64,000 bases of DNA from Minisyncoccota bacterium (GCA_041663145.1 JBAZRG010000002.1:22384-86383), one strand, 5' to 3'; shown: positions 1,985 through 44,220, counted from the first letter of the stretch. A program made the numbers and translations. The notes: generated from the letters alone by a model not told the origin.

Positions 1985-2024
1985 TGGAGAATTGCGGGGG
2001 GGGGGTCGTTATAGTCATTTTATT

Positions 2025-3021: not shown

Positions 3022-3030
3022 TTTATCGTA

Positions 3031-14782: not shown

Positions 14783-14836
14783 TAATTTAGACTTTCTTAA
14801 TCAGGATTTTAAGTTCCGCTTCTATAATGAACTCTC

Positions 14837-17589: not shown

Positions 17590-17591
17590 TC

Positions 17592-18053: not shown

Positions 18054-18054
18054 C

Positions 18055-18906: not shown

Positions 18907-18907
18907 G

Positions 18908-20074
18908 ATGAAAACAATCCTAAGAACTGAAATAACTGTTAAAGATATTTGTGAAGGGTTTGTCTATAATGAACTGGAAGGTAAAGGTTTGTTTGGCTTA
19001 TCTGGTAATCTCACTATTCAACCAGAGTATCAACGTAACTACATATATGCATCTGATGGTGGAAAAAGAGAGGTTGCTGTTATTGAGTCAATACTCAAAA
19101 GTTACCCAATAGGTTTGATTTATTTTAATAAAGTAGATGAGGAAAAATTTGAAGTCTTGGACGGGCAACAGCGTATCACTAGCGTCGGACGTTTTGTAAC
19201 TGGAAAATTTGCCATTCGAGATGAGAATGGGATGCAATATTTTGAGGCTATGGCAGGAGACAAAAAAGATAAGATTTTGGAAACTAAGCTGCTCATTTAT
19301 GAATGTGAAGGTACCGAAAGCCAAATAAAAGAGTGGTTTAAGACAATCAACATAGCCGGAGTTCCGCTGGTCCCTCAAGAATTGTTAAATGCGATTTATT
19401 CAGGACCATTTGTTACATTAGGTAAAGAAGAGTTTAGCAATAGTCAGAATGCTAATATTCAAAAATGGAGTGCGTATATAAAAGGAAGTGCAAACAGACA
19501 AGCATTTTTTGAGAGAGCTCTGGACTGGGTGAGTAGGGGAAATATCGATGATTATATGAGTATTCATCGCAACGACAAAAATATCAATGAGCTAAAAAAA
19601 TATTTCAACAGCGTGATTGATTGGATCTCTAGTGTATTTACCGACGTAGAAAGCGAGATGTGCGGTCTTGAATGGGGTAGACTATATGAGGAGTATCATA
19701 AGAAGGCTTATGACCCCAAGAGAGTGTCAGTCGAAGTTCGTAAACTTTATGGTGATTCGTACATCAGAAATCGCAAAGGTATTTTTGAGTATATTCTCGG
19801 TGGTTCAATCGATTCAAAATTACTTGAAGTCCGAATCTTTGATGAAGCAGATAAAAAAACTGTCTATTTAACACAAACTGCCAAAGCAGAGAAAAAAGGT
19901 GAATCAAATTGTCCACTTTGTGCTGTTGGACATGATGCCAACAAGGAAAAGATTTGGACTCTAGGTGATATGGATGCCGACCATGTAGCTGCTTGGAGCA
20001 AGGGTGGTAAGACAACGATAAAAAATTGTGAGATGTTGTGTAAGACGCATAATAGAGCGAAAGGTAATCGGTAA
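18908..20074 (+). CDS. GmrSD-like type IV (modification-dependent) restriction endonuclease: DUF262 ParB-like NTPase/nuclease plus a C-terminal HNH/DUF1524 nuclease
   Basis: The DUF262 motif DGQQRIT is present. The C-terminus carries CPLC...H..., DADHVAAWSKGG and CKTHNRAKGN, an HNH-like set of residues. Confidence 0.7.
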   Translation: MKTILRTEITVKDICEGFVYNELEGKGLFGLSGNLTIQPEYQRNYIYASDGGKREVAVIESILKSYPIGLIYFNKVDEEKFEVLDGQQRITSVGRFVTGKFAIRDENGMQYFEAMAGDKKDKILETKLLIYECEGTESQIKEWFKTINIAGVPLVPQELLNAIYSGPFVTLGKEEFSNSQNANIQKWSAYIKGSANRQAFFERALDWVSRGNIDDYMSIHRNDKNINELKKYFNSVIDWISSVFTDVESEMCGLEWGRLYEEYHKKAYDPKRVSVEVRKLYGDSYIRNRKGIFEYILGGSIDSKLLEVRIFDEADKKTVYLTQTAKAEKKGESNCPLCAVGHDANKEKIWTLGDMDADHVAAWSKGGKTTIKNCEMLCKTHNRAKGNR

Positions 20075-24296: not shown

Positions 24297-24905
24297 TTAA
24301 ATACGCACCCCTGTGATCAGATTAAATACAAATGGAATTATCGGTGCGACAACTTGCCATAAAAAGAAAATGATTATGATTACAAATATTGGTCCGAATC
24401 GTTCGAGATTCATGCGAAGCTGTCCGAATTGATGTGGTAGGAAAGCCAGAAAAAGTTTCGATCCATCCAAAGGGGGAATAGGGATAAGGTTGAAAATGGC
24501 TAAGACAATATTGATATAGATAACAATAGAGACGATTTCTGCAAACGGTGTCATGATAGCTGTGCCACTTATATAGAATCTCAAAATTAAACCAAAGATA
24601 ATCGCTATGAGTAGATTTGAAGCGGGTCCAGCGGCAGCGATTAAAAATTCACCTTGCCTTTTATTTTTGAGATTGTAAGGATTGTAGACAACCGGTTTGG
24701 CCCATCCGAAAGTAAAGCCGGCCAATGACGTCAAAAGAGGCACGGCAAATGAACCTATAGGATCGAGATGACGTATAGGATTTATCGTGAGACGGCCCTG
24801 AAGACGTGGTGTCGGATCACCCAGGTAATCAGCCATATATCCATGAGAAACTTCATGGAGGATGACAGAAAATATGAGAATAACTATTGATAAAATGATT
24901 AACAT
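24297..24905 (-). CDS. Site-2 protease family (M50-like) zinc metalloprotease
   Basis: HExxH (LHEVSHGYMA) within a TM helix; polytopic membrane protein. Confidence 0.65.
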   Translation of the reverse strand: MLIILSIVILIFSVILHEVSHGYMADYLGDPTPRLQGRLTINPIRHLDPIGSFAVPLLTSLAGFTFGWAKPVVYNPYNLKNKRQGEFLIAAAGPASNLLIAIIFGLILRFYISGTAIMTPFAEIVSIVIYINIVLAIFNLIPIPPLDGSKLFLAFLPHQFGQLRMNLERFGPIFVIIIIFFLWQVVAPIIPFVFNLITGVRI

Positions 24906-25224: not shown

Positions 25225-25647
25225 ATGCCTACGATCAATCAACTTACACGAAGACACAGACAGCGTTTTAAGGCTAAATCCAAGTCTATAGCATTGACCA
25301 GGACTTTCAATACGATCAAAAACCACCCTTCATTCTTTCCAGCACCTTTCAAAAGGGGAGTTTGCGTCAAGGTAACTACAAAGACACCAAAAAAGCCAAA
25401 CTCAGCTATTCGTAAGATTGCTCGCGTACGTTTGACTAACGGAGTTGAGGTGACCGCATACATTCCAGGTATGGGACACAATCTCCAAGAGCACGCTGTA
25501 GTACTTTTGCGAGGTGGTAGGGTCAAAGACGTAGGTTTGCGATATTCAGTAGTCCGTGGAGTCTTGGACTGTGCAGGAGTCGAAGCCCGAAGAAAAGGAC
25601 GCAGTCAGTACGGTAATAAGAGACCAAAGGTAGCAAAGACAGCCTAA
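25225..25647 (+). CDS. rpsL: 30S ribosomal protein S12
   Basis: [10 protein letters not shown]..., [34 protein letters not shown]. Confidence 0.95.
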
Positions 25648-25678: not shown

Positions 25679-26149
25679 ATGCGACGTAAACTAAACATAA
25701 AAAGAGAATTAAGAGCCGACATTAACTACAATTCTATAAAATTGGGCAAATTTACCAATTACCTTATGGAATCAGGTAAGAAAAATGTCGCTCGCAAGAT
25801 CGTGGCTGACTGCATGACTGCTATAAAAGAAAAAGCCAAAGTCGAGAATCCTCTGGAATTGTTCGAGACAGCACTAAAAAACACCACACCTCTCATGGAA
25901 GTTCGTTCTCGTCGAGTCGGTGGAGCAAATTACCAGGTTCCTCGCGAAGTTCGACCAGAAAGGAAACAAGCTCTATCTATGAAATGGTTGATCGATGCCG
26001 CCCGTTCGAAAAAAGGCGCTCCTATTCACCTAAAATTGGCCGATGAGATCATCTCTGCTTCTAAGAATGAGGGAGAAGCCGTCAAAAAGAGAGAAAACGT
26101 TCACAAAATGGCCGAAGCTAACAAGGCTTTCGCTCACTTTGCTTGGTAG
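25679..26149 (+). CDS. rpsG: 30S ribosomal protein S7
   Basis: 156 aa with S7 conserved segments. It sits in rpsL-rpsG-fusA order. Confidence 0.9.
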   Translation: MRRKLNIKRELRADINYNSIKLGKFTNYLMESGKKNVARKIVADCMTAIKEKAKVENPLELFETALKNTTPLMEVRSRRVGGANYQVPREVRPERKQALSMKWLIDAARSKKGAPIHLKLADEIISASKNEGEAVKKRENVHKMAEANKAFAHFAW

Positions 26150-26216: not shown

Positions 26217-28361
26217 ATGAACCGCGACTATCCACTAGAGAGAATGCGCAATTTTGGAATCATTGCCCATATTGATGCCGGAAAAACTACGACTTCTGAG
26301 CGTATTTTGTACTATACAGGAATGACTCATAAGATCGGTGAAGTTCATGAAGGTGATACTGTGACTGATTGGATGGAACAAGAGAGGGAACGTGGTATTA
26401 CGATCACAGCCGCCGCCATCACCTGTTTTTGGAATCCTACCTACATGCCAAAGGGTGATGTTTCCAAGAAAGTCCGTTTTAATATTATCGATACTCCCGG
26501 ACACATCGACTTTACGGTAGAGGTAAAGAGATCTTTGCGTGTTTTGGACGGCGCAGTCGTGGTTTTTGATGGAGTTGCCGGAGTAGAGCCACAATCAGAG
26601 ACAAACTGGCGTTATGCTGATGATGGAAAAGTTCCTCGACTTTGCTTCATTAACAAGCTTGATCGTACAGGAGCTTCATTTGAAAAGTCTTTCAAGTCAA
26701 TTCAGGAACGTTTAAATAAAAATGCGATCAGATTCCAGATTCCAATCGGTTTGGAAGGGGATCATAAGGGAGTTGTGGATCTCTTGAATATGAAAGCCTA
26801 TTATTTCGAAGGAGAAATGGGCAATCAAATCATCGAAAAGGAAATTCCAGCTGAACTCCTCGATGATGCAAAGAAATACCGTTCTATTTTGGTTGAAAAG
26901 ATCGTCGAACACGATGATGCTACAATGCAGGCATATTTGGATGGAAAAGAGATATCTATAGAAGAGCTCAAGAAAATCACAAGAAAAGCAGTTATTAACA
27001 ATGAAATTTTCCCAGTCTTTACTGGTTCTGCTTTGAAAAATATCGGTGTTCAATTGGTTTTGGACGCCGTTGTTGACTATTTGCCTTCGCCGTTAGATAT
27101 TCCAGCTGTTAAAGGTATCAATCCTAATACTGGTGAAGAAGTTTTTCGCCATGCTGACGATAAAGAGCCATTTTCTGCTTTGGCTTTCAAACTTCAGAAC
27201 GATCCTTTCGTCGGAGCGTTGACATTCTTTCGAGTGTATTCTGGAACTATAGAAGCTGGATCATACATATACAATTCTTCAACTGGTAAAAAAGAGCGAC
27301 TAGGTCGCATCGTCCGTCTGCAGGCCGACAAGCGTGAAGAAGTTAAGAAAGTCTTTGCTGGTGAGATCGCAGCGGCAGTAGGTTTGAAAGAAGCCCTTAC
27401 CTCACATACTTTTTCGGATGAAACAAATCCTATTGTCCTAGAAGTCATAAAATTCATGGAGCCAGTTATTTCTCTTCGAGTAGAACCAAAGACGAAGGCT
27501 GACCAAGAAAAGATGGGTGTAGCTCTACGCAAGCTCAGCATCGAAGATCCAACTTTCAGAATTTCTTCAAACCAGGAGACAGGTGAAACTATCATCTCCG
27601 GTATGGGCGAACTTCATTTGGAGATCATGGTAGATCGTATGAAGCGTGAATTTGCTGTCGAAGCAAATGTCGGCGAACCTCAGGTAGCTTATAGAGAGAC
27701 TATCTTGAATACTGCAGAAGCTGAAAATAAATACATCAAGCAAACTGGAGGTAAAGGTCAATATGGACACGTCCGTATCACCTTGAAACCTATGGAACCA
27801 TGGCCAGAAGGTGAAAAGATCCCGAAGACAGTTCATAGGTTTGATGATTTTGAATTCATAAACTCTATCAAAGGTGGTGTTATCCCAAATGAATTTATCC
27901 CGGCTGTTGAAAAAGGTGTTCATGAAGCTATGGATCGAGGTATCGTGGCCGGTTACAAGATGGTTAACATTTCCTGTGAACTAACATTTGGTTCGTATCA
28001 CGACGTGGACTCATCAGAAATCGCTTACAAGATCGCCGCATCTCAGGCTTTTCAGGATGCCGCCAAGAGAGCTAAGCCTGTGATCCTTGAACCTATCATG
28101 CGACTGGAAGTAGTTGCGCCGGAGAAATACATGGGTGATATCAACGGTTCGATCGCTTCGAAACGAGGTACCATCGAAGGTTCTGAGCCAAAAGGTCAGG
28201 TATTGGCTATTCACGCCAAGGTTCCTCTCTCGGAAATGTTCGGGTATACAACAGAACTTCGTTCTATGACTTCTGGTCAAGGCAGCGCAATGATGGAATT
28301 TGATCACTATGAAGTCGTGCCGGCAAACGTAGCGGCAGAGATTGTGGAAAAGAGGAAGTAA
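26217..28361 (+). CDS. fusA: Elongation factor G
   Basis: 714 aa with G-domain motifs [17 protein letters not shown] and NKLD. Confidence 0.95.
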
Positions 28362-28372
28362 TAGAACCGTAA

Positions 28373-28472
28373 ACCCCACGCGACATAACAACATCCCTCC
28401 GTACACCTGCGGGCGCTTACGCTAAGCACAATCCTCGGTGTACGGAGGGATGTTGTTATGTCGCGTGGGGTT
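28373..28472. repeat. Element B copy 2: a 34-bp perfect inverted repeat enclosing a conserved loop (cctgcgggcgcttacgctaagcacaatcctcgg)
   Basis: 28373-28406 is the reverse complement of 28439-28472. The loop shares cctgcgggcgct and atcctcgg with copy 1. It lies immediately after the fusA stop. Confidence 0.75.
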
Positions 28473-28563
28473 ATCTATACATTTGAAGTTATACACAGCG
28501 TTGTTATCTTAGTGGGGGGGGTATAATAAGACTACTTAATGAAGTGGTCTTATTATTTATTTC

Positions 28564-30672
28564 ATGAAAAAAGAGTTGCAGATTTATCTTGGGAGTATAT
28601 CGAAAATATCTTTTTCTGTGGTAATTATCTCTCTTTTCTTCTTCCGAATATCCTCAGCAGCGGTCGCTACTCCGACAAATGAAAATGTCTTGTGCGTATA
28701 CAATTCACTCTCCGACATATCGACTGCCATCTGCGATTATTATCTAGAAAAAAGACCTGGAGCCCATTTACTCGGGCTCGATATAGATGATTCGAAATTT
28801 CATCCCAAAGTAGATTTTGTTGGAGTTGATGGACCAAGATTCAAAGATGATACACATCTTCGTGAAGTAATAACGTTTGAAAGTTTCCGAGACAATCTGG
28901 CTCTGCCTATACAGAGAGAGGTAAGTGCTCATCCAGAATGGAATATTACACATTTGGCTATTGCCAAGGATCTGCCCACGACAATAGATTTTGTTACACG
29001 TCGTGTATCAGCCGCATATATGCTCGGTCTCAGTTTTCCAGAAAATACTACCTATGAAGATATAGAGGCATTTAAGAAAAAGATACCTTATGATTACAAT
29101 CGCAATCAATACAATGTAACCGGAAAAGAGGAAATGAAATATGCCGCATGCGCAATGTTTCCAGTACATTTCAGGCCGCAAACATGCGTAGCATGGCAGG
29201 GGATAAAGTTTAGATTTGCCGTGTCGTATCTCACAGGATTCACAGTTGCTGATGTAAAAAAGATGATCGATAAAGCTAGAATGCCTACAGTTGCTATTTC
29301 AGAAGCTAAATGGTTAATGGATGCTAAACAAGGGTGGGGATTAAAACTTCTGGAAGATGCTTACAAGATAATGCTTGATGCGGGTATGAGTAGTGAGAGC
29401 ATAATAACCGAAAAGACTGCTACTTACCCAGTCACAATAAATGCAACGATCGTGGGATATGGAGGACAAGGTGTGCATCATGGTTATACAAAAGATTGGG
29501 CCGCAAAAGTCCCAGCAATAAATGTTGAGGTCTCAAATAGAGCCATACTCAGTGTTTACGAGAGTTGGTTTGCCGTCTCCGCTAACAAATTAAGAAGACC
29601 CACATTAGATCAAGGGTCAATATATGATGCCATATCTCCAGAAGCCTTTGGTGGTGAGAATTATTCTAAATCTTTTTCCGGTGGGATGGGTACGGTTTTT
29701 GAGCCATATATCGGTGGAGTCGTAACTTGGTATGATTTGTTCACAAATTATTGGATGGGTAAGACTTTGGGGGAGACATGGTTAGCTTCGACATATATGA
29801 ATAGGCACATAGCAATGTCAGTTGGAGATCCAATCATGAGGCTTTATGATACTCCTTCTCTCAATGTGAATAGAGCGCCAGTTGTAAATGCTGGGGAGGA
29901 TATGGACGTTGTTGTAAACTCTTTTCCAGCGAAGATAAGATTCACCAGCATGGTAGGTGACGATAATTATCCAGAAGCGAGTCTTACTTACAAATGGATA
30001 AATATGAATGAATATACGCCGATAGTGAAGTTTCTAGATAGTTTCCTGCGTGGAAATATATTTGGTTTCTTAAACTCTTCCGATATTCTCGCTGCAGGTT
30101 TATTAGCTCAAAATAAACTTATCGAATCAGATAATACGAGTGGAAACAAGAAACCTCCCGTAGAAAATGCCAGAGTTCCTATTTTCAATTTCGATTGCTC
30201 CACCTGTATCCAGACCACGGCGACTTTTCCTGAGCCAGGGAAATATACCATCAGATTTGAAGTCTCTGATGGTGAAAAGACCGGTTATGATGAAGTTACG
30301 GTAAATTTAAAAGAATCCGCAAATGCTTCTCAATGGACGAAGGGAGATGGAGAATCATCTAAGACTAAAAATAAATCAACAAATAAAGTTATAGACAATC
30401 ACGATGCGATCATAAATAACCGTAACGGAGAGGTGGTACCTGCCGGTACTGATTTTTCTTCGGTCAAGAATGATATAGATAATGCAAAGACACAGATAAA
30501 AGACATGTTGCCTCAGATACCGATACCTGATATGGAGTCCGATACACCAAATAATGTCAAAGAAACAATAAATAAAGGCGGTGAAAATGTAAAAATAATC
30601 AGCGAGAGAATTATTCGTGGAGCTAAGAAAATTAGTAATAATCTATTTCAAACTCTGATTGATATTTTCTAA
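28564..30672 (+). CDS. Large secreted protein of unknown function (signal peptide)
   Basis: 702 aa with an N-terminal hydrophobic signal (ISKISFSVVIISLFFFRISSAAVA). No recognised domain. Confidence 0.5.
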   Translation: MKKELQIYLGSISKISFSVVIISLFFFRISSAAVATPTNENVLCVYNSLSDISTAICDYYLEKRPGAHLLGLDIDDSKFHPKVDFVGVDGPRFKDDTHLREVITFESFRDNLALPIQREVSAHPEWNITHLAIAKDLPTTIDFVTRRVSAAYMLGLSFPENTTYEDIEAFKKKIPYDYNRNQYNVTGKEEMKYAACAMFPVHFRPQTCVAWQGIKFRFAVSYLTGFTVADVKKMIDKARMPTVAISEAKWLMDAKQGWGLKLLEDAYKIMLDAGMSSESIITEKTATYPVTINATIVGYGGQGVHHGYTKDWAAKVPAINVEVSNRAILSVYESWFAVSANKLRRPTLDQGSIYDAISPEAFGGENYSKSFSGGMGTVFEPYIGGVVTWYDLFTNYWMGKTLGETWLASTYMNRHIAMSVGDPIMRLYDTPSLNVNRAPVVNAGEDMDVVVNSFPAKIRFTSMVGDDNYPEASLTYKWINMNEYTPIVKFLDSFLRGNIFGFLNSSDILAAGLLAQNKLIESDNTSGNKKPPVENARVPIFNFDCSTCIQTTATFPEPGKYTIRFEVSDGEKTGYDEVTVNLKESANASQWTKGDGESSKTKNKSTNKVIDNHDAIINNRNGEVVPAGTDFSSVKNDIDNAKTQIKDMLPQIPIPDMESDTPNNVKETINKGGENVKIISERIIRGAKKISNNLFQTLIDIF

Positions 30673-30697
30673 GACCATCATATTAAAAAATAAAAAA

Positions 30698-32617
30698 ATG
30701 AACATAATAAGCAAGATAAAGGCGATGATACTGATACAATTCTTAGTGTTCTTATATGCTTCTTCTGTATTTGCGCAATCGTCAGTAGATTGTTCTAGTC
30801 CTCTAATGTTCAGGGCCGATAGGGACGTAGGAGATATTATGACTTCCGAAGAAGCTTCTTCACTCAAAAATATTTTATCCAAATACAATTTGTTAAATGA
30901 TGCCGCCAAATATAATCTTGAATACAATGATGAGTATTCTGTGGCTATAGGAAAGTATCAAGCGATGAATGATCTTTTACGCACCGGCTATATGGGACCA
31001 CTCACTAGGTTGAAGTTAAACAATATTTGTTCTGGTTCAGTCACAAAATTGACGGTTGTGGGTCCAAATGGTAACGAAGAGAAAAAAGTTGGAGAAAATA
31101 TGACAGTTTCTTGGAAAGCCCAAGGAGTAATCACCGGCAAGATAGCGATATCGGCGTATTCATATGTCACAATGGTTACTACCAATATCGCCACCGTACC
31201 CGTAGCTCAGAGTTCATATACATGGAAAATAAATGTACCTGTTGGTAAATACAAGATACAGATAAATTATGTAGATAGCCAAGGTAAATTACAAAAAAAT
31301 ATCTCTGATTTGAGTGATGAATATTTCAAAGTCATATCAGCAACCGTTAAACCTGAACCATCTATAAATATAGCATCACCTATTAATGGCGCTTTGTATG
31401 AAACTGGATCAGAATTGAAATTGATTTGGTCAACATCTAATTTCGATAATAACATATCCAATCTTTCAGCCAATCTTATTATAATAGATGAGATTCAGGA
31501 GAGGGCAATAGTATTATCTTCATCTCTTATAAACGATGGACAAGAAACATTTAAGATACCAAATACTGGCAATGGTAAATATTGGATACAGATCAAAGCA
31601 GATGTTACGGGAAAAAATGTCCCCGTGAAAGGGTATAGTGGAGTATTCAGAATATCGAATCCTGCTCCTGTAATCGCTAATGACTTGGCCATAAGTAAGA
31701 CGGAGGTTGTACCAGACTCAACTTCCGGTAAATATAAATCGTGGCTAACATTCAAGGGTGCTACGGCAGAAAGTAAGATATCTTCTTGGAAAATAAAGTT
31801 CGGTTGCATTTCGGGTATAGTAGTCAGTTCTAAAGAGGGTTCATTCTGTGAAGAAAGAATTGTGGCATCAAATATATATCAATATAACGGAGAAATGGCC
31901 AAAGAGTTTTCATTTACCAATACAACAGGATCAGCACAGACTATAACTGTGGTGGCAACTGCAGTGGGAGTGAGCGGTAGTATTTTGGGGAATACCGACG
32001 ATTCAATAACTATCCCTAGTATTCAAATAGAAGAAAGTAGTATTGAAATCAGCTCTATTTCATCGTCGAATCAAAGTCTAAACATATCTTCGACAGAAGA
32101 AACTTCTAATGTAGTCTTGGGACAATTTGTATTTAAATCCAAAAATGTAGATTCTTATCTGGAACATGTATTTGTAAGAGTGAATACAGGAAAAACTCCT
32201 GTAGCAGATATAATAAAAAATATGATTTTGGAATCTAATGGAAAGATCTATCCCATGGATATTTTGGAGAATGCAGATGCTGTATTTGTAGATATGAGAA
32301 TACCATTGCCGGCAAACGCCACTGTACCTATAGTTATAAAAGGATCAATAGCCAAAGATAATGGAAAGTTAAATGGTCAATCCATATCTTTAAGCGTGAT
32401 TGTAGCTGCTAATAATGCTATATATAATAGGGTTTATGTTCACGATTCATATGGAAGAGATATAAAAGTCCCTGAAGGTACTCACACTAGCTTTACTACA
32501 ACATTGGTCGGATCATCGGGTCTATTACAAGATGGATCTGAACAGCCCAAAGAATCTCCAGTAATAGACGTATCGGCTTCCATATTCAATATAATTGAGA
32601 AGTTGATGAAATTCTAA
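30698..32617 (+). CDS. Large secreted surface protein of unknown function (signal peptide; Ig-like/repeat-rich)
   Basis: Signal peptide MNIISKIKAMILIQFLVFLYASSVFAQS. Ser/Thr/Asn-rich beta-type repeats. The start is taken at ATG 30698. Confidence 0.5.
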   Translation: MNIISKIKAMILIQFLVFLYASSVFAQSSVDCSSPLMFRADRDVGDIMTSEEASSLKNILSKYNLLNDAAKYNLEYNDEYSVAIGKYQAMNDLLRTGYMGPLTRLKLNNICSGSVTKLTVVGPNGNEEKKVGENMTVSWKAQGVITGKIAISAYSYVTMVTTNIATVPVAQSSYTWKINVPVGKYKIQINYVDSQGKLQKNISDLSDEYFKVISATVKPEPSINIASPINGALYETGSELKLIWSTSNFDNNISNLSANLIIIDEIQERAIVLSSSLINDGQETFKIPNTGNGKYWIQIKADVTGKNVPVKGYSGVFRISNPAPVIANDLAISKTEVVPDSTSGKYKSWLTFKGATAESKISSWKIKFGCISGIVVSSKEGSFCEERIVASNIYQYNGEMAKEFSFTNTTGSAQTITVVATAVGVSGSILGNTDDSITIPSIQIEESSIEISSISSSNQSLNISSTEETSNVVLGQFVFKSKNVDSYLEHVFVRVNTGKTPVADIIKNMILESNGKIYPMDILENADAVFVDMRIPLPANATVPIVIKGSIAKDNGKLNGQSISLSVIVAANNAIYNRVYVHDSYGRDIKVPEGTHTSFTTTLVGSSGLLQDGSEQPKESPVIDVSASIFNIIEKLMKF

Positions 32618-32642
32618 ATATATATAGTATGATTATTCTGCA

Positions 32643-33716
32643 ATGAAAAATTTCCAAAAAGGGTTTGTCGTGCGGGGCATTATAGCAATCATAGCCTTAC
32701 TTTTATTAACAGGAGGAGCATATATAGCTTCCAAAGATCAACGGGGTACCGCAAGTAATCAAGACATAAGTGGTGAAAATGTTTTTAATAATTCCCAGGA
32801 ATCGAGATGTTCCAATGGTTCCACAAATTATCCTCACTGCAATGCCGATTTACCGTATATAGGAAGTATCACTTCTGGATCAACCATCTTTACACATGTT
32901 GACTCTGGTATTACTTTCAAATATCCCAAAAACTGGAAGTTTGATGCCGTAAAAAATTATTTTACAACGTCGGATTATCAGGAAGGTAAAAGCGGGGCAC
33001 GAATCGAATTTGTATATGGACTTTCATACAGTGACTGGCAAAAAACAGTTGCCGCTATGTATGGAAGTAAATCCACTAATAATCCAATTTTTATCAATGG
33101 AAGACCTGCATTGCAGACAACATATGCAAGTGAGCCATATCTTCTAGGACTATCGATACCATTTGCAAATAATACTGCGTTTATATCGTTATTCTTGAGA
33201 TACGAAGCTGCAGGAAGATTTGAGGCTTCATACAAGGAATCTTATGAGCCGATTTTGCGACAGATAGCTGAAAATATGATTTTGCCATCTTCGCAAGACA
33301 CGACTTGGCATACATATACTAACAATAAACATAATTTTAGCTTTAACCATCCGCCGCTTACAGCAGTAGTCCAAAGTAGCACATACTCGACAAATTCCGT
33401 GGCATCTTATGAAGTCTTTGTGCGTTATGGATTTCACCAGTTACTTTTTGTCTACTCTAAACCTTCCGATCATTCTATAAAGGCGTGGTATGACGGCACA
33501 TATTCTGAAATTACACCATTTAAAGGTCCTACAGAAAAAACAGTCAACGGATACTCAGCTATCGATGTTACCTTCAATGATATGGCTAATCTAACGAGAC
33601 ATATTATGCTTGCAAAAGGCAATGTTGTAATTGATTTTGTATTCAACGCTGACCCAGAGGGTCCACTGAATTTCGATCAACAAAAATTATTAGATTCATT
33701 TTTATTCATAAATTAA
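32643..33716 (+). CDS. Membrane-anchored or pilin-like-leader protein, paralogous N-terminus with the next gene
   Basis: The N-terminus MKNFQKGFVVRGIIAIIALLLLTGG is G-F plus a hydrophobic stretch, but lacks Glu at +5. Confidence 0.45.
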   Translation: MKNFQKGFVVRGIIAIIALLLLTGGAYIASKDQRGTASNQDISGENVFNNSQESRCSNGSTNYPHCNADLPYIGSITSGSTIFTHVDSGITFKYPKNWKFDAVKNYFTTSDYQEGKSGARIEFVYGLSYSDWQKTVAAMYGSKSTNNPIFINGRPALQTTYASEPYLLGLSIPFANNTAFISLFLRYEAAGRFEASYKESYEPILRQIAENMILPSSQDTTWHTYTNNKHNFSFNHPPLTAVVQSSTYSTNSVASYEVFVRYGFHQLLFVYSKPSDHSIKAWYDGTYSEITPFKGPTEKTVNGYSAIDVTFNDMANLTRHIMLAKGNVVIDFVFNADPEGPLNFDQQKLLDSFLFIN

Positions 33717-33717
33717 C

Positions 33718-34830
33718 ATGAAAAACTTACAAAAAGGATTTGTCGTGCCGGTACTTTTAACAATAATTACATTGTTGGTAGTCGGTGGTGGTGTTTATAT
33801 TTATCAAAGTAAAAAAGTAGAAACACCTTCTGTTAAAAATACTGACACGCCTCAGTTGAATCAAGTGCAACAGACAAATGCTCAAACTCCCGCCGTCACA
33901 CAACCGATAGTTACCTCTGCTGCAGTTTCCACAAAGCCTTCTATCACTGTTCTCTCTCCAAACGGCGGTGAGACATTTAAACAAAATTCTCCTATTACTG
34001 TGAAATGGTCACAGAATTTCTCTGGATCGGCATTTATTTGCCTTATGGGAGATGCTGGCTGTGTTTATAGTTCGACACCAGTCAAATTTAATTCAGGAAT
34101 TAATACTTTGACTATTCCTGTGGGTATAAATATTGCAACATGTAACACAACTATTTGTTATATCGCAGATGGTTTCAAGGTAAGAGTTACCACAGACAAT
34201 CAGCCTGGGAGTGGTCATGCGGGAGAATTCATGAATGACGAGAGTAACGGTTATTTTGTGATACTACCACAGACAGGCTTACAAGCATTTTCATTTTTAC
34301 AAGAGATGCAAAGTCAGATTGGTACTAATTACACAATTAATCCTTCAGTAGGAAGTACTATTCCAGCATTCAGAGTAGATTTACCGAGTGATAAATTTGC
34401 ACAAGCAACCAATTATCTCTCTTCTCAATTCGGTGGTCATAATAATAAATATACCAGTGAACGCGGGTATGGCTATGAAAATTGGCATTTGCTTTGCATG
34501 AGTATCGGTCTCGGTGCAGGTGCAGCTTCTTCAGATCTTCCGTATGTAACATGTAAGGACAAAGTTGGAGTTCAAACAATTGATGTTGTGGTTAAAGATA
34601 TAAAAGGCATTAATACAAATCCTCGCGATTTCCTACTGACGATAGGGAATGAGACTATGAAGGTTAGAATGCCAGCAGTGATACAAAATAACAATTACCA
34701 AAATGGTACTTATGCTGATTTCGTTAAAACCATAACCAGTAACCAATATCAGACGAGTACGTTCAAAATGACTGGTGAGATAAAGGGTGATGCTTTTGAG
34801 GTGACTACTATTCAGTGGATATTGGGTTAG
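33718..34830 (+). CDS. Membrane-anchored or pilin-like-leader protein (paralogue of 32643..33716)
   Basis: The N-terminus MKNLQKGFVVPVLLTIITLLVVGGG is nearly identical in design to the upstream gene. The start lies 2 nt after the upstream stop. Confidence 0.45.
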   Translation: MKNLQKGFVVPVLLTIITLLVVGGGVYIYQSKKVETPSVKNTDTPQLNQVQQTNAQTPAVTQPIVTSAAVSTKPSITVLSPNGGETFKQNSPITVKWSQNFSGSAFICLMGDAGCVYSSTPVKFNSGINTLTIPVGINIATCNTTICYIADGFKVRVTTDNQPGSGHAGEFMNDESNGYFVILPQTGLQAFSFLQEMQSQIGTNYTINPSVGSTIPAFRVDLPSDKFAQATNYLSSQFGGHNNKYTSERGYGYENWHLLCMSIGLGAGAASSDLPYVTCKDKVGVQTIDVVVKDIKGINTNPRDFLLTIGNETMKVRMPAVIQNNNYQNGTYADFVKTITSNQYQTSTFKMTGEIKGDAFEVTTIQWILG

Positions 34831-35016
34831 TATAACCAATACAAAGCCAAAAAATTTGCGAATTTTATTGAGTCATGTTAGTATCTTCTGTACGCGCAGA
34901 CCCTGCGTTTTTAATAGTCTTATTAACAATTTTATCCACTGCTTTTGGGATGATCGACGTGACACACTTGGATCCCGTCGAGTATTCCAAAAGTTGGGGC
35001 ACTAAAAATAAAAAAC

Positions 35017-36204
35017 ATGGCAGCAGAATTCAATCGCACAAAGCCGCACGTTAACGTCGGCACAATCGGCCACGTCGACCACGGAAAGTCGACGCTCACA
35101 GCCGCTATTCTTGTCGTTCAAGCCAAAAAAGGTTTGGCAAAGGAGAAGGCATACGCCGATATTACAAAGGGAGGTACCGTTCGAGACGCTTCAAAGACGG
35201 TTACTATCTCACTCGCTCACGTTGAGTATGAGTCAGCTACAAGACACTATGCTCATATCGATGCTCCTGGACATGCCGACTACATCAAGAACATGATCAC
35301 AGGTGCCGCCCAGATGGACGGTGCTATCTTGGTCGTATCCGCTCTAGACGGTGTGATGCCACAGACTCGTGAGCATATCCTCCTTGCCAAGCAGGTTGGT
35401 GTGCCGAAAGTTCTAGTATTTCTCAACAAATGTGATGCGGTCGAAGAGAAAGATTTGATTGACCTCGTCGAAGAAGAAGTTCGCGAACTATTGACCAAGC
35501 AAGGTTTCGATGGCAAGACAGCCCCAGTTATCCGTGGATCAGCCCTCAAAGCTCTCGAAGGTGATCCTGCATGGACTACCAAGATCGATGAACTCATGGA
35601 AGCTCTCGATACCTTTATTCCAATTCCAGTTCGTGAAGTCGACAAGCCGTTCCTGATGCCAATCGAAGACATATTCTCTATCGAAGGCCGTGGAACTGTG
35701 GTTACAGGTCGTATCGAGCGCGGAAGGATCACTTTGAACGAAGAAGTTGAGATCGTCGGATTCCGAGACACTGTAAAGACAGTTGTTACCGGTATCGAAA
35801 TGTTCAATAAACAGCTCAAAGAGGGTATCGCTGGAGATAACGCAGGTTTGCTCTTGCGTGGTACAGCCAAAGACGCCGTATCTCGCGGACAGGTACTATC
35901 GAAGACTGGTGCAGTCAAACCTCATACAGAATTTGAGTCAGAAGTTTACGTTTTGAAGAAAGAAGAAGGAGGTAGACACACACCATTCTTTACAGGATAT
36001 AAACCTCAGTTCTATATTCGAACAACAGACGTAACTGGTGAAGTAACATTGCCAGAGAAAGTAGAAATGGTAATGCCGGGAGATACAGTTACTTTCAAAG
36101 TGAAGCTCGTAGCTCCAGTCGCACTCGAAGCACAAATGCACTTTGCAGTTCGTGAAGGAGGCAAGACTGTCGGAGCCGGAGTCGTCACAAAGGTTATCGC
36201 TTAG
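35017..36204 (+). CDS. tuf: Elongation factor Tu
   Basis: [22 protein letters not shown] and the C-terminal beta-barrel motifs are present. Confidence 0.95.
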
Positions 36205-36265: not shown

Positions 36266-36667
36266 ATGACAGCAAACAAAGACACAACCAAGCACGAAGC
36301 TCCTAAGGAAGCAAAAGCTTCTAAACCTGTTAGAATTCGTAAAAATAAGGCAGCAGATGCGGTACCCCATCTACGAATCAGGGTTAGAGCTTATGAACAC
36401 AAGATTTTGGACGCTTCCTTGAAACAGATTATCGATACGGCCAGCCGATACGACGCTACCATTCATGGTCCAGTGCCGTTGCCGACCGAGATCAAGAAGT
36501 ACACTGTAAATCGCTCTTCATTCATCGATAAGAACTCACGTGAACAGTTCGAAATGAGAGTTCACAAGCGTTTGATCGACATCGTCAATCCAAACCCGAA
36601 GGTTATCGAGGCGTTGACGAACTTGAGTTTGCCATCCGGAGTGAATATAGATGTAAAGATGATGTAA
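36266..36667 (+). CDS. rpsJ: 30S ribosomal protein S10 with a ~35-aa N-terminal extension
   Basis: LRIRVRAYEHKILD...HGPVPLPTEIKKYTV...HKRLIDIV. Confidence 0.9.
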   Translation: MTANKDTTKHEAPKEAKASKPVRIRKNKAADAVPHLRIRVRAYEHKILDASLKQIIDTASRYDATIHGPVPLPTEIKKYTVNRSSFIDKNSREQFEMRVHKRLIDIVNPNPKVIEALTNLSLPSGVNIDVKMM

Positions 36668-39377: not shown

Positions 39378-40199
39378 CTATTTGGTCGGTATCTCAATTG
39401 TGAAAGTTGTTCCTCGATTTATTCCAGGAGAACTGACTGTAATCTTTCCATGATGTTTCTTTACGATCGATCGGGCAAGGAATAGTCCAACACCGAAACC
39501 TTCTGTATCTATATTCTGGGCGTTTTTTGTGCGGTAGAATTTCGTGAATATCTTGTCTATGTCGGCGTGATCAATGCCGATACCATTGTCGACAATAACT
39601 ATTATGGCTGTATTCGATCTTTGTCCGATACTCACCTCAACATTTCTGCCTGGTGGAGTGTAATTGTGGGCATTTTCCAATATTGTTTGTAAGACAAATT
39701 CCATTCGAGGTCGATCGATTTTTGCGGTTAATTGCTGGATAGCACACTGAACTGAGAAGAACAAGTTTTTTTGATGGAATAAGTCTTTGTGCTGTTCGGC
39801 AATTGATTTTACAAAGGCACATATATCAGTAGTTTCGAAGTTATATGAAGATTTCGTTTCATTGTCGAGATTTGTCATTTCGATCAGTGTGCCGGTTAGA
39901 TTGATCAATTTTTCATTTGATTGCTTCAGATCTTTGAAATTTTCCAGACGTCGAACATCTTGTTCTTCAGCTACCATGCTTTCGATCAACCACTTGGCAG
40001 CTGTGAGTGGTGTTCGGAATTTGTGAGCGATGATCGTTATGAATTCGTATTTGAGCTTTTCGTTTTCATTGATCTTGATCCATATTCGAGAAATGATGAT
40101 ATAGAGTAGACTGACCACAATGACAGCCAACAGAGAGAGTCCGATCAAATTGCTTTCAAATATGGTCGAATCATCGATAAGTATTTTGAAATCCATCAT
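39378..40199 (-). CDS. Membrane-anchored sensor histidine kinase (HisKA + HATPase_c); no response regulator nearby
   Basis: H-box IIAHKFRTPL and G-boxes DNGIGI / GFGVGLFLARSIV. It has an N-terminal TM helix. It sits convergently after rplB. Confidence 0.8.
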   Translation of the reverse strand: MMDFKILIDDSTIFESNLIGLSLLAVIVVSLLYIIISRIWIKINENEKLKYEFITIIAHKFRTPLTAAKWLIESMVAEEQDVRRLENFKDLKQSNEKLINLTGTLIEMTNLDNETKSSYNFETTDICAFVKSIAEQHKDLFHQKNLFFSVQCAIQQLTAKIDRPRMEFVLQTILENAHNYTPPGRNVEVSIGQRSNTAIIVIVDNGIGIDHADIDKIFTKFYRTKNAQNIDTEGFGVGLFLARSIVKKHHGKITVSSPGINRGTTFTIEIPTK

Positions 40200-40268
40200 A
40201 GGTGCTTTGATTATAGCATTATGGGGATAAGGTGGTCATGCTATAATGTAGATAAATAAGTGTTCGAT

Positions 40269-41813
40269 ATGAAAAAAACTTTCAAATCTTATATAAAAAA
40301 GTGGCATATAGTAGTTCTGATCATATTTGTATTGATTGTAGTTGGATATGTATTTTTGAAAGGAGGTGATAGACCTATATTTGAGACGGCTCTGGTTACA
40401 ACGGGGGATATTATCCGAGAAGTTAGTGTAACAGGCAAGGTTTCGCCGATAGAAAGGGCACAATTATCTTTTGCCAAAGGGGGAATTGTTACGAAGATAG
40501 CCGTCAAGGTCGGTGATAAAGTAAAAAGAGGCGATATGATAGCCTCGCTAGATGATGCTGTGGACAAAGCCAATCTGGCGGCAGCTGAAGCAAAATTGGC
40601 TGATATTTCTCGCACTTTACGTCCGGAAGAATGGAAATTGGAACAATCAAAGGTTAATTCATCCAAAGTCGCTCTGGATAATTCAAAAAAAGATTCTGAG
40701 AATGCTTTTCGTGAAAGCTATAACACAGTCCAAAGCGCACTTATAAACTATACTGATCAGATTTTTGACAATCCACAAAGTATAAATCCGACAATAAAAG
40801 TTAGATTGTCTGGTACGACTCAGCAGTCGCGGATTAATGAACTTCGATTGAAGGTGACTGAGAATATGGCAAAATGGAAAGCTGATATAGATGCGATGAC
40901 AAGTGGAGTAGATCAAGACAACCTACTTTCAAAAGCTATGCAATATCTGGATGTAGATAAGATTTTTTTGAGTGAACTCTCTGCGATTGTGAATGGTTTG
41001 AACTCAGTCAATTCAGGATTGACGGAAGCTACTTTGGAAATATATATTTCGGATACAAATACAGCCATTTCATTGCAAAATCAAGCAATTACGGTAGTTA
41101 CCACGGCAGATTCGGCATTACGCAATGCTTCCTCGGCATATGTCGAAGCACAGAACAGTTCCTCGTTAAAAGTCGCCGGCTCATCTTCCGAATCCATAAA
41201 AGCTCAGGCTGCATCTGTTGCGGCCTATCGAGCAGAATTGTCTCGAAATCAGATCACAGCTTCGATAGATGGAATCATCACGCGAGTTGTGCCAAATGTG
41301 GGCGAATATGTTTCTCCTGGAATGACATTGTTCGATTTACAAAGCAGCGGAATATACAAGATCGAGGCCAATGTAGCAGAAGCGGACATAGCCAAGATTG
41401 CTATTGATGATACGGCTCAGGTGACTTTGGATGCATACGGACAAGATGTAATATTTGGAGCCAAATTGGTCCGGATAGACCCGGCTGAGACTGTCCTCGA
41501 GGGTGTTCCAACATATAAAGTCACACTATTTTTCGATGATGAAGATGAAAAGATCTTTTCGGGAATGACTGCTAATACGGATATTTTGACTGATAAGCGT
41601 AATGATGTGATGATGGTGCCTTCGCGTTCTATTCTCGAAGAGAAAGATGAGATTACAGGACAAGTTACAGGTCGATTTGTCAGAGTTATGAATCCAGACA
41701 ATCGTGATTTCACTAAAGTTCCAGTCACTGTAGGTCTCAAAGGATCATCTGGCACGACGGAGATCATTTCCGGTTTGAATATTGGTGATACGGTCGTGAC
41801 GTATGTGAAATAG
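40269..41813 (+). CDS. HlyD/MacA-family periplasmic adaptor (membrane fusion protein)
   Basis: N-terminal TM anchor, a long coiled-coil middle region and a C-terminal beta-barrel region. It is followed by ABC ATPase and FtsX-like permease genes. Confidence 0.7.
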   Translation: MKKTFKSYIKKWHIVVLIIFVLIVVGYVFLKGGDRPIFETALVTTGDIIREVSVTGKVSPIERAQLSFAKGGIVTKIAVKVGDKVKRGDMIASLDDAVDKANLAAAEAKLADISRTLRPEEWKLEQSKVNSSKVALDNSKKDSENAFRESYNTVQSALINYTDQIFDNPQSINPTIKVRLSGTTQQSRINELRLKVTENMAKWKADIDAMTSGVDQDNLLSKAMQYLDVDKIFLSELSAIVNGLNSVNSGLTEATLEIYISDTNTAISLQNQAITVVTTADSALRNASSAYVEAQNSSSLKVAGSSSESIKAQAASVAAYRAELSRNQITASIDGIITRVVPNVGEYVSPGMTLFDLQSSGIYKIEANVAEADIAKIAIDDTAQVTLDAYGQDVIFGAKLVRIDPAETVLEGVPTYKVTLFFDDEDEKIFSGMTANTDILTDKRNDVMMVPSRSILEEKDEITGQVTGRFVRVMNPDNRDFTKVPVTVGLKGSSGTTEIISGLNIGDTVVTYVK

Positions 41814-41864
41814 TTGGGTGGATGTTTCGTGTGAGGATTATACTTTCACATAATACGAGCCGAT

Positions 41865-42578
41865 ATGCAGAACATAATTGAAGTAAAAAATCTCAGTAAA
41901 TCTTATGATGATGGTACAGTCGCACTTAACGGAGTGACTTTTTCGGTTCGTAAAGGTGAATTTATGGCCATTATGGGTCCGTCAGGTAGTGGGAAATCCA
42001 CACTTTTGCATTTGCTTGGTCTCCTAGATATACCGACGAAGGGTTCATATCATCTGGATGGACACCCGATATCCTCATATTCCGATATAGATCTGGCCAG
42101 GATCAGAAATCACCATCTCGGTTTTGTCTTTCAATCATTCAATCTTCTGCCGAGGACTTCAGTTTTGGAAAATGTAAAATTACCTCTGTTTTATTCAACT
42201 GTTCCAGAAATAGAATGGGAAATGAAGGCAAAAAAAGCCGTAGAAGATGTTGGTCTCGGTCACAGAATGTTCCATGAACCGGCAGAACTTTCAGGTGGAG
42301 AAAAGCAACGTGTAGCAATAGCGCGAGCTCTGGTCAATGATCCAGATATAATATTTGCTGATGAGCCGACTGGTAATCTAGATTCGAAATCTGGCAAAAA
42401 TGTCATGGCAATCATTCAACATCTAAATGAAGAACACGGCAAAACCATTATCCTTATTACACATGAGACATCAACAGCCGAACATTCAGAAAGGATCATT
42501 CATCTCATAGATGGAGAGATAGATAGTGATCATAAAGTTAGAAATCGTCTGAAAACCACAGATCAGTATGTAAAATAA
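41865..42578 (+). CDS. ABC transporter ATP-binding protein (MacB/LolD-type)
   Basis: Walker [10 protein letters not shown], signature LSGGEKQR and Walker B IIFADEPT. Confidence 0.9.
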
Positions 42579-42583
42579 ATATC

Positions 42584-43819
42584 ATGACCTGGAAACATAT
42601 TATCAAGACTTCTCTGACCGGACTCTCGACGAATAGATCGAGATCTTTTCTGACTATACTGGGAATAGTGATAGGTATTACATCGATAATGCTGGTGGTT
42701 TCTCTAGGTGCTGGAGCTCAAAATCTGATACTCGGTCAGATCCAAGGACTCGGTTCGAATACTCTGACTGTACACGCCGGCAGGGAACCATCGGGTCCAT
42801 CGGACGTATCTTTTCTATATAGCGATTCTTTGAAGGAAAAAGATGTTATTGCCCTCAAGAATAAAACAAATGTTCCCGGTTTAAAATCCATAATGCCCTC
42901 GGTTTTCGGCGCTGTTACTGTTTCATACGGTTCAAACTCATATCAAACATCAATATTTGGTTGTACTGATTTGGTTGTGGATATCATGGATCTCAATCCT
43001 ATTGGAGAATTTTTCACCGAACAAGACGTTTCTTCGAGAAGCGATACGGTTGTTCTAGGTTCAAAAGTGGTTGAGCACATATTCGATAATGAAGATCCTA
43101 TCGGACAAAAGGTCAAGATTAAGGGTCGGAATTTCAAAGTAATTGGCACGTTGCCGGCTTCTGGTGGAGGATCGATATTTAATTTTGACGATATGGTTCT
43201 AGTACCATATACAACTGCTCAGTATTATATTCTCGGTCAGAAACATTTTAGCGAAATCATCATGCAGGCGGTTTCTGATATTGCAGTTCCATCTACAGCT
43301 GAAGATATCAAAACAACCCTACGCGAATCTCATGGTATTACAGATCCAACTAAAGATGATTTCAACGTCAGCACTCAACAAGATCTAGCAAAGAGACTAG
43401 GTACTATCACTAGTATTTTGACTTATTTCCTAGTGGCTGTGGCTTCGATCGCTCTATTTGTAGGAGGTGTAGGCATCATGAACATCATGCTTGTTGCTGT
43501 TACAGAACGCACTCGAGAGATAGGTCTTCGAAAGGCCTTGGGTGCAACGAATAAAGATATATTGTCACAATTTTTGATTGAAGCTATATGTCTCACGGTA
43601 ATGGGCGGTATCATTGGAATATTTCTAGGTTCAGTATTGGCTTTTGCTATTTCCTTTGGGCTTTCGAAAGGTTTAGGTGTTGATTGGCAATATATATTCC
43701 CCTGGAGTGGGGCAATGCTAGGTTTTGGTGTATCAGCTCTGATCGGTCTCATTTTCGGCGGATATCCAGCTAGTCAGGCATCAAAGAAGAGTCCGATAGA
43801 GGCGTTGAGGTATGAGTAG
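42584..43819 (+). CDS. ABC transporter permease, FtsX-like (MacB-type)
   Basis: 411 aa with an N-terminal TM helix, a large periplasmic domain and a C-terminal 3-TM FtsX domain. Confidence 0.85.
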   Translation: MTWKHIIKTSLTGLSTNRSRSFLTILGIVIGITSIMLVVSLGAGAQNLILGQIQGLGSNTLTVHAGREPSGPSDVSFLYSDSLKEKDVIALKNKTNVPGLKSIMPSVFGAVTVSYGSNSYQTSIFGCTDLVVDIMDLNPIGEFFTEQDVSSRSDTVVLGSKVVEHIFDNEDPIGQKVKIKGRNFKVIGTLPASGGGSIFNFDDMVLVPYTTAQYYILGQKHFSEIIMQAVSDIAVPSTAEDIKTTLRESHGITDPTKDDFNVSTQQDLAKRLGTITSILTYFLVAVASIALFVGGVGIMNIMLVAVTERTREIGLRKALGATNKDILSQFLIEAICLTVMGGIIGIFLGSVLAFAISFGLSKGLGVDWQYIFPWSGAMLGFGVSALIGLIFGGYPASQASKKSPIEALRYE

Positions 43820-44068: not shown

Positions 44069-44220
44069 GAGCTCGGTGAATATTGTTCGGAAACGACTCG
44101 CAATGCGATTTGAACCCCGAACAAATTGCCCATATCTGAGTAGTTCCATCTACTCAAATATGGATGCAATTTGGAGTGGGTGACCTTGCGTGTCGTTTCC
44201 GAACAATGTTCACCGAGCTC
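44069..44220. repeat. Element A copy 2 (outer 35-bp inverted repeat plus conserved core)
   Basis: gagctcggtgaatattgttcggaaacgactcgcaa (44069-44103) is the reverse complement of 44186-44220. The core at 44104-44185 matches the 3067-3149 core at most positions. The variable stem segment differs from copy 1 but stays self-complementary. Confidence 0.75.

Follow-up and report, generated by a model that had tools for sequence, protein, structure and literature searches.

Envelope genes inserted between fusA and tuf of a Paceibacteria genome and the probable signal-anchor tag shared by two of their products

Introduction

The canonical str operon has the gene order rpsL-rpsG-fusA-tuf. In the present work this region was analyzed in a 64,000-nucleotide stretch (below, the window) of a metagenome-assembled genome (MAG) of Paceibacteria, a lineage of the Patescibacteria or candidate phyla radiation (CPR) (GCA_041663145.1, JBAZRG010000002.1:22384-86383). 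The order and the strand of the four genes are retained here and the S10 operon comes next, but fusA and tuf are 6.65 kb apart and possible terminators are found on both sides of the insert. The insert consists of four genes, designated P1-P4. The proteins P3 and P4 share an N-terminal module, referred to as the tag, which a preliminary description of the locus had compared with a prepilin leader.

The conserved N-terminal export and localisation signals of monoderm bacteria are exemplified by the YSIRK-G/S and KxYKxGKxW signal peptides. The tag resembles them in that one conserved N-terminal motif occurs on many unrelated surface proteins of one lineage; it differs in the motif itself, in the conservation of the whole hydrophobic span and in being probably kept as an anchor. 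We know of no dedicated pathway for a tag of the P3/P4 type, and a literature search gave nothing relevant either on this leader or on a split fusA-tuf pair in CPR. The second group of described systems is formed by proteins with prepilin-type signals. Bacterial pilins nearly always carry Glu or Asp at position +5, and Gly, Ala or Ser at position -1 is a general requirement for processing (PMC4371748). The subunits of the Sulfolobus bindosome are large substrate-binding proteins with pilin-type processing sites (PMC4371748).

The data presented below suggest that the block between fusA and tuf is probably a lineage-specific insertion of four envelope genes, with P3 and P4 being bitopic proteins that carry a lineage-wide signal-anchor tag and not a pilin module.

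Organization of the locus

According to the map of open reading frames (ORFs), the locus is encoded by the + strand in the order rpsL-rpsG-fusA-hairpin-P1-P2-P3-P4-tuf-rpsJ-rplC-rplD. The upstream part is formed by rpsL (25225-25647), rpsG (25679-26149) and fusA (26217-28361), the latter coding for EF-G of 714 aa and being the upstream border of the insertion. Then follow P1 (28564-30672, 702 aa), P2 (30698-32617, 639 aa), P3 (32643-33716, 357 aa) and P4 (33718-34830, 370 aa). The downstream border is tuf (35017-36204, EF-Tu of 395 aa), next to rpsJ (36266-36667). The identities of fusA, tuf and the ribosomal genes were assigned by tblastn (55-87% identity to the same gene order in 80 genomes); EF-G is 55-83% identical to the EF-G loci of these genomes, where it is flanked by rpsL and rpsG, and EF-Tu is 62-84% identical to tuf of the related loci.

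P1-P4 are tightly packed, with intergenic gaps of 25, 25 and 1 bp, and are presumably expressed. P1 and P2 have the layout of secreted proteins, and P3 and P4 have one N-terminal hydrophobic helix each, followed by domains of extracytoplasmic type. Four secreted or membrane-anchored proteins had been described between fusA and tuf, which is borne out by the ORF map and by this layout: judged from its sequence, each of the four appears to be an envelope protein that is either exported or anchored in the membrane. P4 corresponds to an NCBI protein of a 'Candidatus Paceibacterota' MAG, encoded there on a contig of 187 kb.

Split fusA-tuf pairs in Patescibacteria

A scan with the EF-G protein, restricted to one genome per species, gave 80 loci, in which rpsL, rpsG, fusA, tuf, rpsJ and rplC were mapped. 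The closest loci (82-83% identity in EF-G) and most of the others are from Patescibacteria MAGs. Both fusA and tuf are present in 38 Patescibacteria loci, where the gap between them ranges from 86 to 6,655 bp with a median of 880 bp, exceeding 500 bp in 27 loci and 1 kb in 17; in thirteen more loci of Patescibacteria the 3.5-10 kb that follow fusA contain no tuf. The median gap is 233 bp in the 9 loci classed by their record titles as non-Patescibacteria; the two of them with a gap above 1 kb (L057 and L062) are probably Patescibacteria with a wrong label. Separation of fusA from tuf is the norm in Patescibacteria, and the rarity of the split that was implied in the preliminary description is contradicted for this group by the comparison of synteny.

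The gaps of the relatives contain no homologs of P1-P4 (tblastn at 1e-5). The genes found there code for signal-peptide or membrane proteins of the same kind as P1-P4, though unrelated to them, with Kre9_KNH (L002), PG_binding_1 and TIG (L003), PG_binding_1 and cupredoxin (L008) or PG_binding_1 (L014, L034) domains. True prepilin-type proteins with N_methyl matches occupy the gap of L062 (two genes) and that of L057. The site acts as a hotspot for non-orthologous envelope genes, and the present insertion is probably one instance of a habit widespread in the phylum. In L146 (7492-13097) the order is tuf-rpsJ-rplC-tag gene-rplD-rplW-rplB, the inserted tag-bearing gene coding for 289 aa with He_PIG and Kre9_KNH domains.

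Some further observations concern these sites. The prepilin-type proteins in L062 (2726-5519) and L057 (12204-13343) have 379-467 aa, the sequence FTLVELL or FTLIELL, and InlB-B-repeat, He_PIG or Fib_succ_major domains. The rplC-rplD junction of L146 is a second kind of ribosomal-operon junction holding a tag-bearing gene. In the window the rplB-rpsS junction of the S10 operon is also broken (39378-43819), by a minus-strand histidine kinase gene and a trio of genes for an HlyD-like protein, an ABC ATPase and a MacB-FtsX permease.

The P1-P4 block is not a conserved operon, since its genes sit in other contexts in the relatives. The closest P4 relative (81%) is found downstream of a helix-turn-helix gene on its contig and the closest P3 relative (68%) downstream of a gene of the EPSP-synthase family; the P1 relatives stand alone, one of them (P0083) on a contig that also encodes RNA polymerase subunits of archaeal type (Rpb5, split Rpb2). 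No conserved P1-P4 operon was found elsewhere. Only the adjacency of a P3-like and a P4-like gene recurs, once, in L082, beside genes for amidase_3 and YkuD/PBP cell-wall enzymes. Tandem pairs of genes with the P3/P4-type leader are present in about 10 of 63 metagenomic loci.

Architecture of P3 and P4

The N-termini of the two proteins are as previously described: P3 starts with MKNFQKGFVV and P4 with MKNLQKGFVV, followed by a hydrophobic stretch. Seventeen of the first 28 residues are identical, with nothing significant beyond. The module spans residues 1-28 in P3 (32643-32726, + strand), where it is a variant scoring 58 bits with the hidden Markov model (HMM) of the module, and residues 1-29 in P4 (33718-33804, + strand; 73 bits).

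In P3 the module is followed by a polar linker of ~50 aa and by two PsbP-like segments with the pattern W-x-Y-x-N...YP...W. The match of P3 to PsbP_2 (PF18933) is 20.1 bits (E 7e-4) against a cut-off of 27, and PF18933 is found in three of five P3 relatives. The model of P4 (predicted local distance difference test score 74.5) begins with a helix of ~14 residues broken at G23. The helix is followed by a disordered Thr/Gln/Pro stalk of ~50 aa, extending to about residue 74, an Ig sandwich (residues 76-183) and an alpha/beta domain (residues 189-366). Its structural matches are confined to Ig/CBM/FN3. P4 has no direct Pfam match to Kre9_KNH; many of its relatives carry this domain (PF10342). The search with P4 returned 72 proteins, most of which share the N-terminus alone and sometimes the Ig domain too. 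Searches of PDB sequences with P1-P4 and with the profile of the P1 family gave nothing useful.

Distribution and conservation of the tag

The tag is modelled by neither Pfam nor NCBIfam. A search of 1.84 billion cluster representatives with a 36-position profile of it gave 1,670 clusters at E <= 1e-3, of which 475 remain at E <= 1e-10. In the best 150 matches listed, the match always starts at one of the first 13 residues of the protein and in nearly all cases at residue 1. The consensus reads M-K-N-x-Q-K-G-F-[IV]-V-P-[LV]-L-[IL]-A-I-I-A-[LV]-L-V-I-G-G-G-V-Y-[VI]-Y-x-N-K-K. Among the 125 listed matches with Gly at position 7, which served as the register for counting, F8, P11, G23, Y27 and Y29 are conserved in 98-99% (Phe8 in 124 of 125) and G25 is invariant. 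The tag is followed by a linker rich in Thr, Asn, Gln, Ser and Pro, whose median length, counted up to the first Ig motif, is 52 aa (interquartile range 46-60, n=48); this figure describes the tag-bearing set alone, the control set with classical signal peptides being contaminated by tag variants and extra domains.

The domains attached to the tag are diverse. In 123 tag-bearing proteins PsbP_2 (32) and Kre9_KNH (17) are followed by TIG (5) and PKD (5), with Big_7, DKNYY, PG_binding_1 and others also present; no pilin domain and no N_methyl match was found among these proteins. As PsbP_2 and Kre9_KNH lead this list, P3 and P4 appear to be examples of the two commonest passenger types. The tag of P4 shares 27 of 29 residues with that of its ortholog in L082, with 14 identical codons, and the tags of P3 and P4 share 18 residues, with 8 identical codons. 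Since the synonymous codons differ, the conservation of the tag is due to purifying selection at the protein level and not to recent copying.

The weak NCBIfam similarities of the tag are limited to the transmembrane regions of the membrane-anchored proteins TagU, MapZ and FtsN and to the C-terminal sorting-signal model LPxTATN. Among 143 neighbours of tag genes in the 63 metagenomic loci no family recurs more than 3 times, so that there is no consistent partner, and the 25 neighbour families listed include no candidate for a tag-processing enzyme.

Comparison of the tag with prepilin leaders

The tag shares with type IV pilins (TIGR02532, PF07963) a basic leader ending in Lys-Gly and followed by Phe and a hydrophobic stretch, and pilB, pilC and pilin genes are present in the genome. 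Both P3 (MKNFQKG↓F) and P4 (MKNLQKG↓F) have the basic leader, Gly at -1 and a hydrophobic residue at +1. Glu is missing at +5, as had been stated: this position is Val in P4, Gly in P3 and Leu, Val or Ile in the consensus. The pilins of the window read FSLVE and MTLVE at +1 to +5. The tag also differs from pilins by Pro at +4, by a GGG break after 15 hydrophobic residues and by being joined to hundreds of unrelated ectodomains. None of P3, P4 and the tag gene of L107 matches TIGR02532 at E <= 10, whereas the control pilins of the same run (the products of the genes at 6241 and 8016 of the window and the L107 major pilin) gave 24.3, 26.4 and 34.8 bits with a cut-off of 16.3. P3 and P4 have no match to PF07963 at E <= 10 either, while real pilins do match. 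The pilin-like fold expected from the preliminary description is absent from the P4 model, which has no long alpha1 helix running into a globular head. The proposed pilin-like nature of P3 and P4 was not upheld, considering the failure of both HMMs, the lack of an acidic residue at +5 and the fact that at least 1,670 clusters begin with this leader and carry PsbP-like, Ig, PKD and TIG domains as passengers. As to the pilins reported at 6241-10156, the genes at 6241 and 8016 code for true prepilin-type proteins; the gene at 8624 has a sub-threshold PilX_N match only.

The latter gene (8624-10156, 510 aa) deserves a separate description: its PilX_N match (E 3e-4) is below the cut-off, its sequence NRG↓DILVT has no acidic residue at +5, and it has no NCBIfam match.

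It may still be asked whether the shared N-terminus is a class III prepilin-type signal, which PilD would cut after Gly7, leaving the proteins held in the membrane or displayed by the pilus machinery as a bacterial counterpart of the bindosome. The basic leader of 7 residues, in which Lys and Gly occupy -2 and -1 and which is followed by Phe at +1 (Phe8 being 99% conserved among the matches counted), speaks for this, as Gly, Ala or Ser at -1 is what processing generally requires and the bindosome provides a precedent (PMC4371748). The archaeal class III signal peptides of the Sulfolobus bindosome are likewise attached to large non-pilin extracytoplasmic proteins, have a leader of the type K/R-G-hydrophobic and do not require an acid at +5 (PMC4371748); the difference is that the present lineage is bacterial, that processing and a dependence on the pilus machinery are only putative here and that linkage to pilus genes is seen in only 2-3 of 63 loci. 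In L107 (8809-19985) a tag-bearing Kre9_KNH gene lies within a pilus cluster of the order pilM, tag gene, pilN, pilO, pilB, response regulator, pilT, pilC, major pilin, PilD (A24_N_bact E 2e-27, Peptidase_A24 E 2e-11) and two minor pilins, and in L143 a PsbP-like tag gene is one gene from pilM. In the window pilB, pilC and pilin genes are located 22 kb upstream of the block, and the pilin-like genes in the gaps of L062 and L057 point in the same direction. No PilD gene was found in the 64-kb window. The HMM results, the never acidic +5 of the consensus and Pro at +4 count against this explanation, as does the model, where the short helix passes into the disordered stalk with neither an alpha1-C part nor a pilin head. 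PilM accounts for only 2 of the 143 neighbouring ORFs and no other pilus family is among the 25 families listed. Pilus genes occur in just 3 of the 63 tag loci (the tag gene being beside pilM or one gene from it in 2), against about 2 expected by chance in a rough estimate of our own. Altogether a prepilin-type signal seems unlikely.

P1 and P2

The two large proteins of the block had been described as signal-peptide proteins with Ig-like repeats. Their sizes (702 and 639 aa) and signal peptides stand, and the Ig-like character holds for P2; P1 is not built of Ig repeats, having a 390-residue gingipain-fold domain and a single weak PKD-like match. P1 is composed of a signal peptide (residues ~1-33), the gingipain-fold domain (~38-430), the weak PKD-like region (~545-585), a disordered Lys/Asn-rich tail and a C-terminal amphipathic helix. 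The signal peptide was recognized by inspection from its n-h-c layout (basic n, hydrophobic h, small residues at -3/-1) and ends with SLFFFRISSA↓AV.

The caspase-like two-subdomain alpha/beta fold is present in P1, and the ~390-residue domain is common to 10 relatives, with the invariant motifs NYSxSFSGGxGxxxEP and GDPxM. The match to TIGR03790 (34.4 bits, E 1.7e-8, profile positions 274-310 of 316 against P1 residues 373-409) is below the 67-bit cut-off. P1 has no Pfam match to Peptidase_C25 at E <= 1, and neither P1 nor its family profile matches any PDB sequence, including those of gingipains; P1 has the gingipain fold yet falls outside C25. In enzymes of clan CD the first of two consecutive hydrophobic strands is followed by His and the second by Cys. 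In P1 strand 290-301 is followed by His306 (His in 8 of 10 relatives) and strand 319-331 by Glu333-Ser334 (Ser in 10 of 10). Invariant Cys residues of the family are confined to C44 and C57, none being conserved at the putative nucleophile position. With the clan CD positions mapped by strand order, the catalytic His-Cys dyad would be absent from P1. In contrast to the gingipains RgpB and Kgp (C25, clan CD), P1 has an invariant Ser at the putative nucleophile position, lacks a C25 sequence match and possesses motifs of its own that overlap TIGR03790 below its cut-off. Having probably lost, or never had, the Cys nucleophile, the domain would serve for binding or act as a hydrolase with another nucleophile. 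CPR bacteria and archaea both have members of the P1 gingipain-fold family, one relative (P0087) being labelled Nanoarchaeota. An 817-aa protein encoded upstream of the P4 relative in L084 was considered as a P1-related C25-type peptidase, which is unsupported by Pfam and hhalign.

P2 has 639 aa if translation begins at the first ATG yielding a basic n-region; TTG 30659 and ATG 30725 are alternative starts. Its n-h-c signal peptide, also assigned by inspection, reads MNIISKIKAMILIQFLVFLYASSVFA↓QSS, ending with VFA↓QSS. The Ig-like repeats match Kre9_KNH (PF10342) with 26.0 bits at a gathering cut-off of 24.6, and one segment is 29% identical to the Ig domain of P4. A weak peptidoglycan-binding-like segment is seen as well (PG_binding_1, E 0.022, below the cut-off). 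The mature protein would be a chain of Ig-like domains.

Amphipathic C-terminal ends are found both in P1 (NNLFQTLIDIF, 30637-30669) and in P2 (ASIFNIIEKLMKF, 32576-32614). A similar C-terminal helix is present in the secreted 817-aa protein of L084 (GGIEKIFNNF, L084 ~8640-8680) and in several P1 relatives. This short amphipathic helix may be a shared anchoring or sorting motif.

Hairpins and other features of the window

The stop codon of fusA is directly followed by a long perfect hairpin (28372-28472, + strand). Its arms (28372-28407 and 28437-28472) have 36 nt each, are 100% complementary and enclose a loop of 29 nt. The 202-nt spacer between fusA and P1 folds far better than its shuffles (z = -12.3), and there is no T-run after the long hairpin. 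The second hairpin of the spacer is AT-rich (15 bp; 28523-28556, + strand), has a T-rich tail and ends 7 nt before the ATG of P1; by its sequence it may be terminator-like or a stem occluding the ribosome-binding site. Between P4 and tuf a GC hairpin followed by TTTTT (34894-34908, + strand) has the appearance of a terminator, so the four-gene block is bracketed by terminator-like hairpins.

The hairpin at the end of fusA had been assigned to a repeated family as 'Element B'. The hairpin itself is real; the family membership is not confirmed, as no second copy of its arms turned up either in the window or in the related loci fetched (blastn-short). Both intergenic regions and the other long hairpins were used as queries against all fetched loci, and the interpretation of the post-fusA hairpin as a mark of a mobile element or as a member of a repeated family was dropped when no copies were obtained. 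Rfam contains no family for the intergenic hairpins. More long intergenic hairpins with arms of 35-40 nt are located in the window at 3030-3185, 14668-14787, 44069-44220 and 55055-55213. Those at 3030 and 44069 form a true family, being ~94% identical over 94 nt (the loop and the inner arm ends), with outer arms that have diverged yet are still base-paired. The copy at 3030 is directly after a reverse-transcriptase gene (1957-3021, RVT_1 E 2e-26).

Two other regions of the window may be mentioned. A likely defence island (16465-20074) encodes an EcoRI-type adenine methyltransferase, a Bro-N protein and a GmrSD_N + HNH endonuclease. A small Peptidase_M50 gene (site-2 protease family; 24297-24905, minus strand) lies just upstream of the str operon. 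It is noted solely because an intramembrane protease would be one conceivable reader of the GGG hinge of the tag.

Nature of the tag and origin of the block

In the mechanism that we favour, the tag would serve as a Sec-dependent signal-anchor with Lys2 and Lys6 staying in the cytoplasm. The segment from F8 to Y29 would form the transmembrane helix, with the hinge of three Gly and the Tyr-x-Tyr belt placed at the outer interface and Lys-Lys flanking the span. An unstructured stalk of ~50 residues rich in Thr, Gln, Asn and Pro, long enough to cross the wall, would then carry the ectodomain, which is PsbP-like in P3 and consists of the Ig and the alpha/beta domains in P4. P1 and P2, judged from their n-h-c layout, would be exported via Sec with cleavable signal peptides. 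The signal-anchor explanation accounts for the architecture of the proteins, for the types of passengers and for the failed pilin tests. Several points weigh against it. The near-invariant Gly7-Phe8, Pro11 and GGG-x-Y-x-Y exceed the needs of a generic Sec signal-anchor and argue for something more specific; this extreme conservation, which a signal-anchor leaves unexplained, suggests that the tag is also read by something else, for instance by a peptidase, a docking partner or a localisation system. From the features of its sequence the anchor is predicted to stay uncleaved. The position of tag genes between pilM and pilN in L107 and one gene from pilM in L143 hints at a link to type IV pili, which may equally be explained by the habit of envelope genes to insert into any operon. 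As to P1, its model is confident only for most of residues 38-430, and Ser334 and His306 were assigned to the clan CD positions by strand order and not by a residue-level structural alignment.

The shared N-terminus could alternatively be an ordinary cleavable Sec signal, with signal peptidase I cutting after GGG and P3 and P4 being released as soluble proteins of the wall or surface. Its layout agrees with n-h-c (n MKNxQKG, a 15-residue h, c GGG), the helix of the model breaks at G23, and the -3/-1 rule permits Gly at both positions. On the contrary, Tyr-x-Tyr and Lys-Lys after GGG look like an interface belt and a stop-transfer flank and not like a mature N-terminus; F8-Y29 with its 22 residues has the length of a full transmembrane span. 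The conserved ~50-aa stalk is easier to explain for a tethered protein, and most of the weak NCBIfam similarities concern membrane anchors that stay uncleaved. For these reasons a cleavable signal is quite improbable. Somewhat better, though also unlikely, is the idea that MKNxQKGF-VVP...GGG-x-Y-x-Y constitutes a dedicated Paceibacteria sorting signal, read either by a prepilin peptidase and a pilus-platform 'bindosome' or by an intramembrane protease at the GGG hinge. In the former case PsbP-like and Ig-domain proteins could be displayed at the surface, and in the latter the ectodomains could be released. Regarding the block as a whole, it might have been acquired recently as a mobile or phage-derived island bounded by the hairpin, and not accumulated in place. 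The G+C content drops to 0.35-0.38 in the 30-35 kb part of the window versus 0.41-0.42 in fusA and 0.48 in tuf, the long hairpin marks the left border, and the gap content differs even among relatives with 82% identical EF-G. Such a composition step is expected next to fusA and tuf, because highly expressed conserved genes are usually higher in G+C than lineage-specific ones. Besides, the block contains no integrase, transposase or tRNA gene and has no significant flanking direct repeats, and the sources of every P3 relative and of the closest relatives of P4 are Patescibacteria or metagenome contigs with no label (P1 relatives are also found on archaeal contigs). A mobile island is therefore very improbable, and insertion of lineage-specific envelope genes is preferred.

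Implications

In Patescibacteria envelope genes with a fast turnover routinely land at junctions within the ribosomal/str superoperon, and a split fusA-tuf pair is accordingly not to be read as something special in this group. The part of the locus most worth returning to is the N-terminal tag, which is lineage-wide and unannotated. A second and lesser lead is the P1 family, a gingipain fold in which Ser would take the place of Cys and which occurs in CPR bacteria as well as on archaeal contigs.

Patescibacteria live attached to other cells, and their surface proteins, mostly unannotated, are thought to decide the contact with the host. In one lineage of Paceibacteria a large share of these proteins begins with the same, nearly identical tag, and the 36-position profile is a simple means of listing the anchored surface proteome of these organisms. 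If a specific enzyme reads the tag, it would be a handle on a new sorting route. Should the tag be a dedicated sorting signal, it would belong to a new system of protein sorting, one that controls a large part of the surface proteome in these episymbionts.

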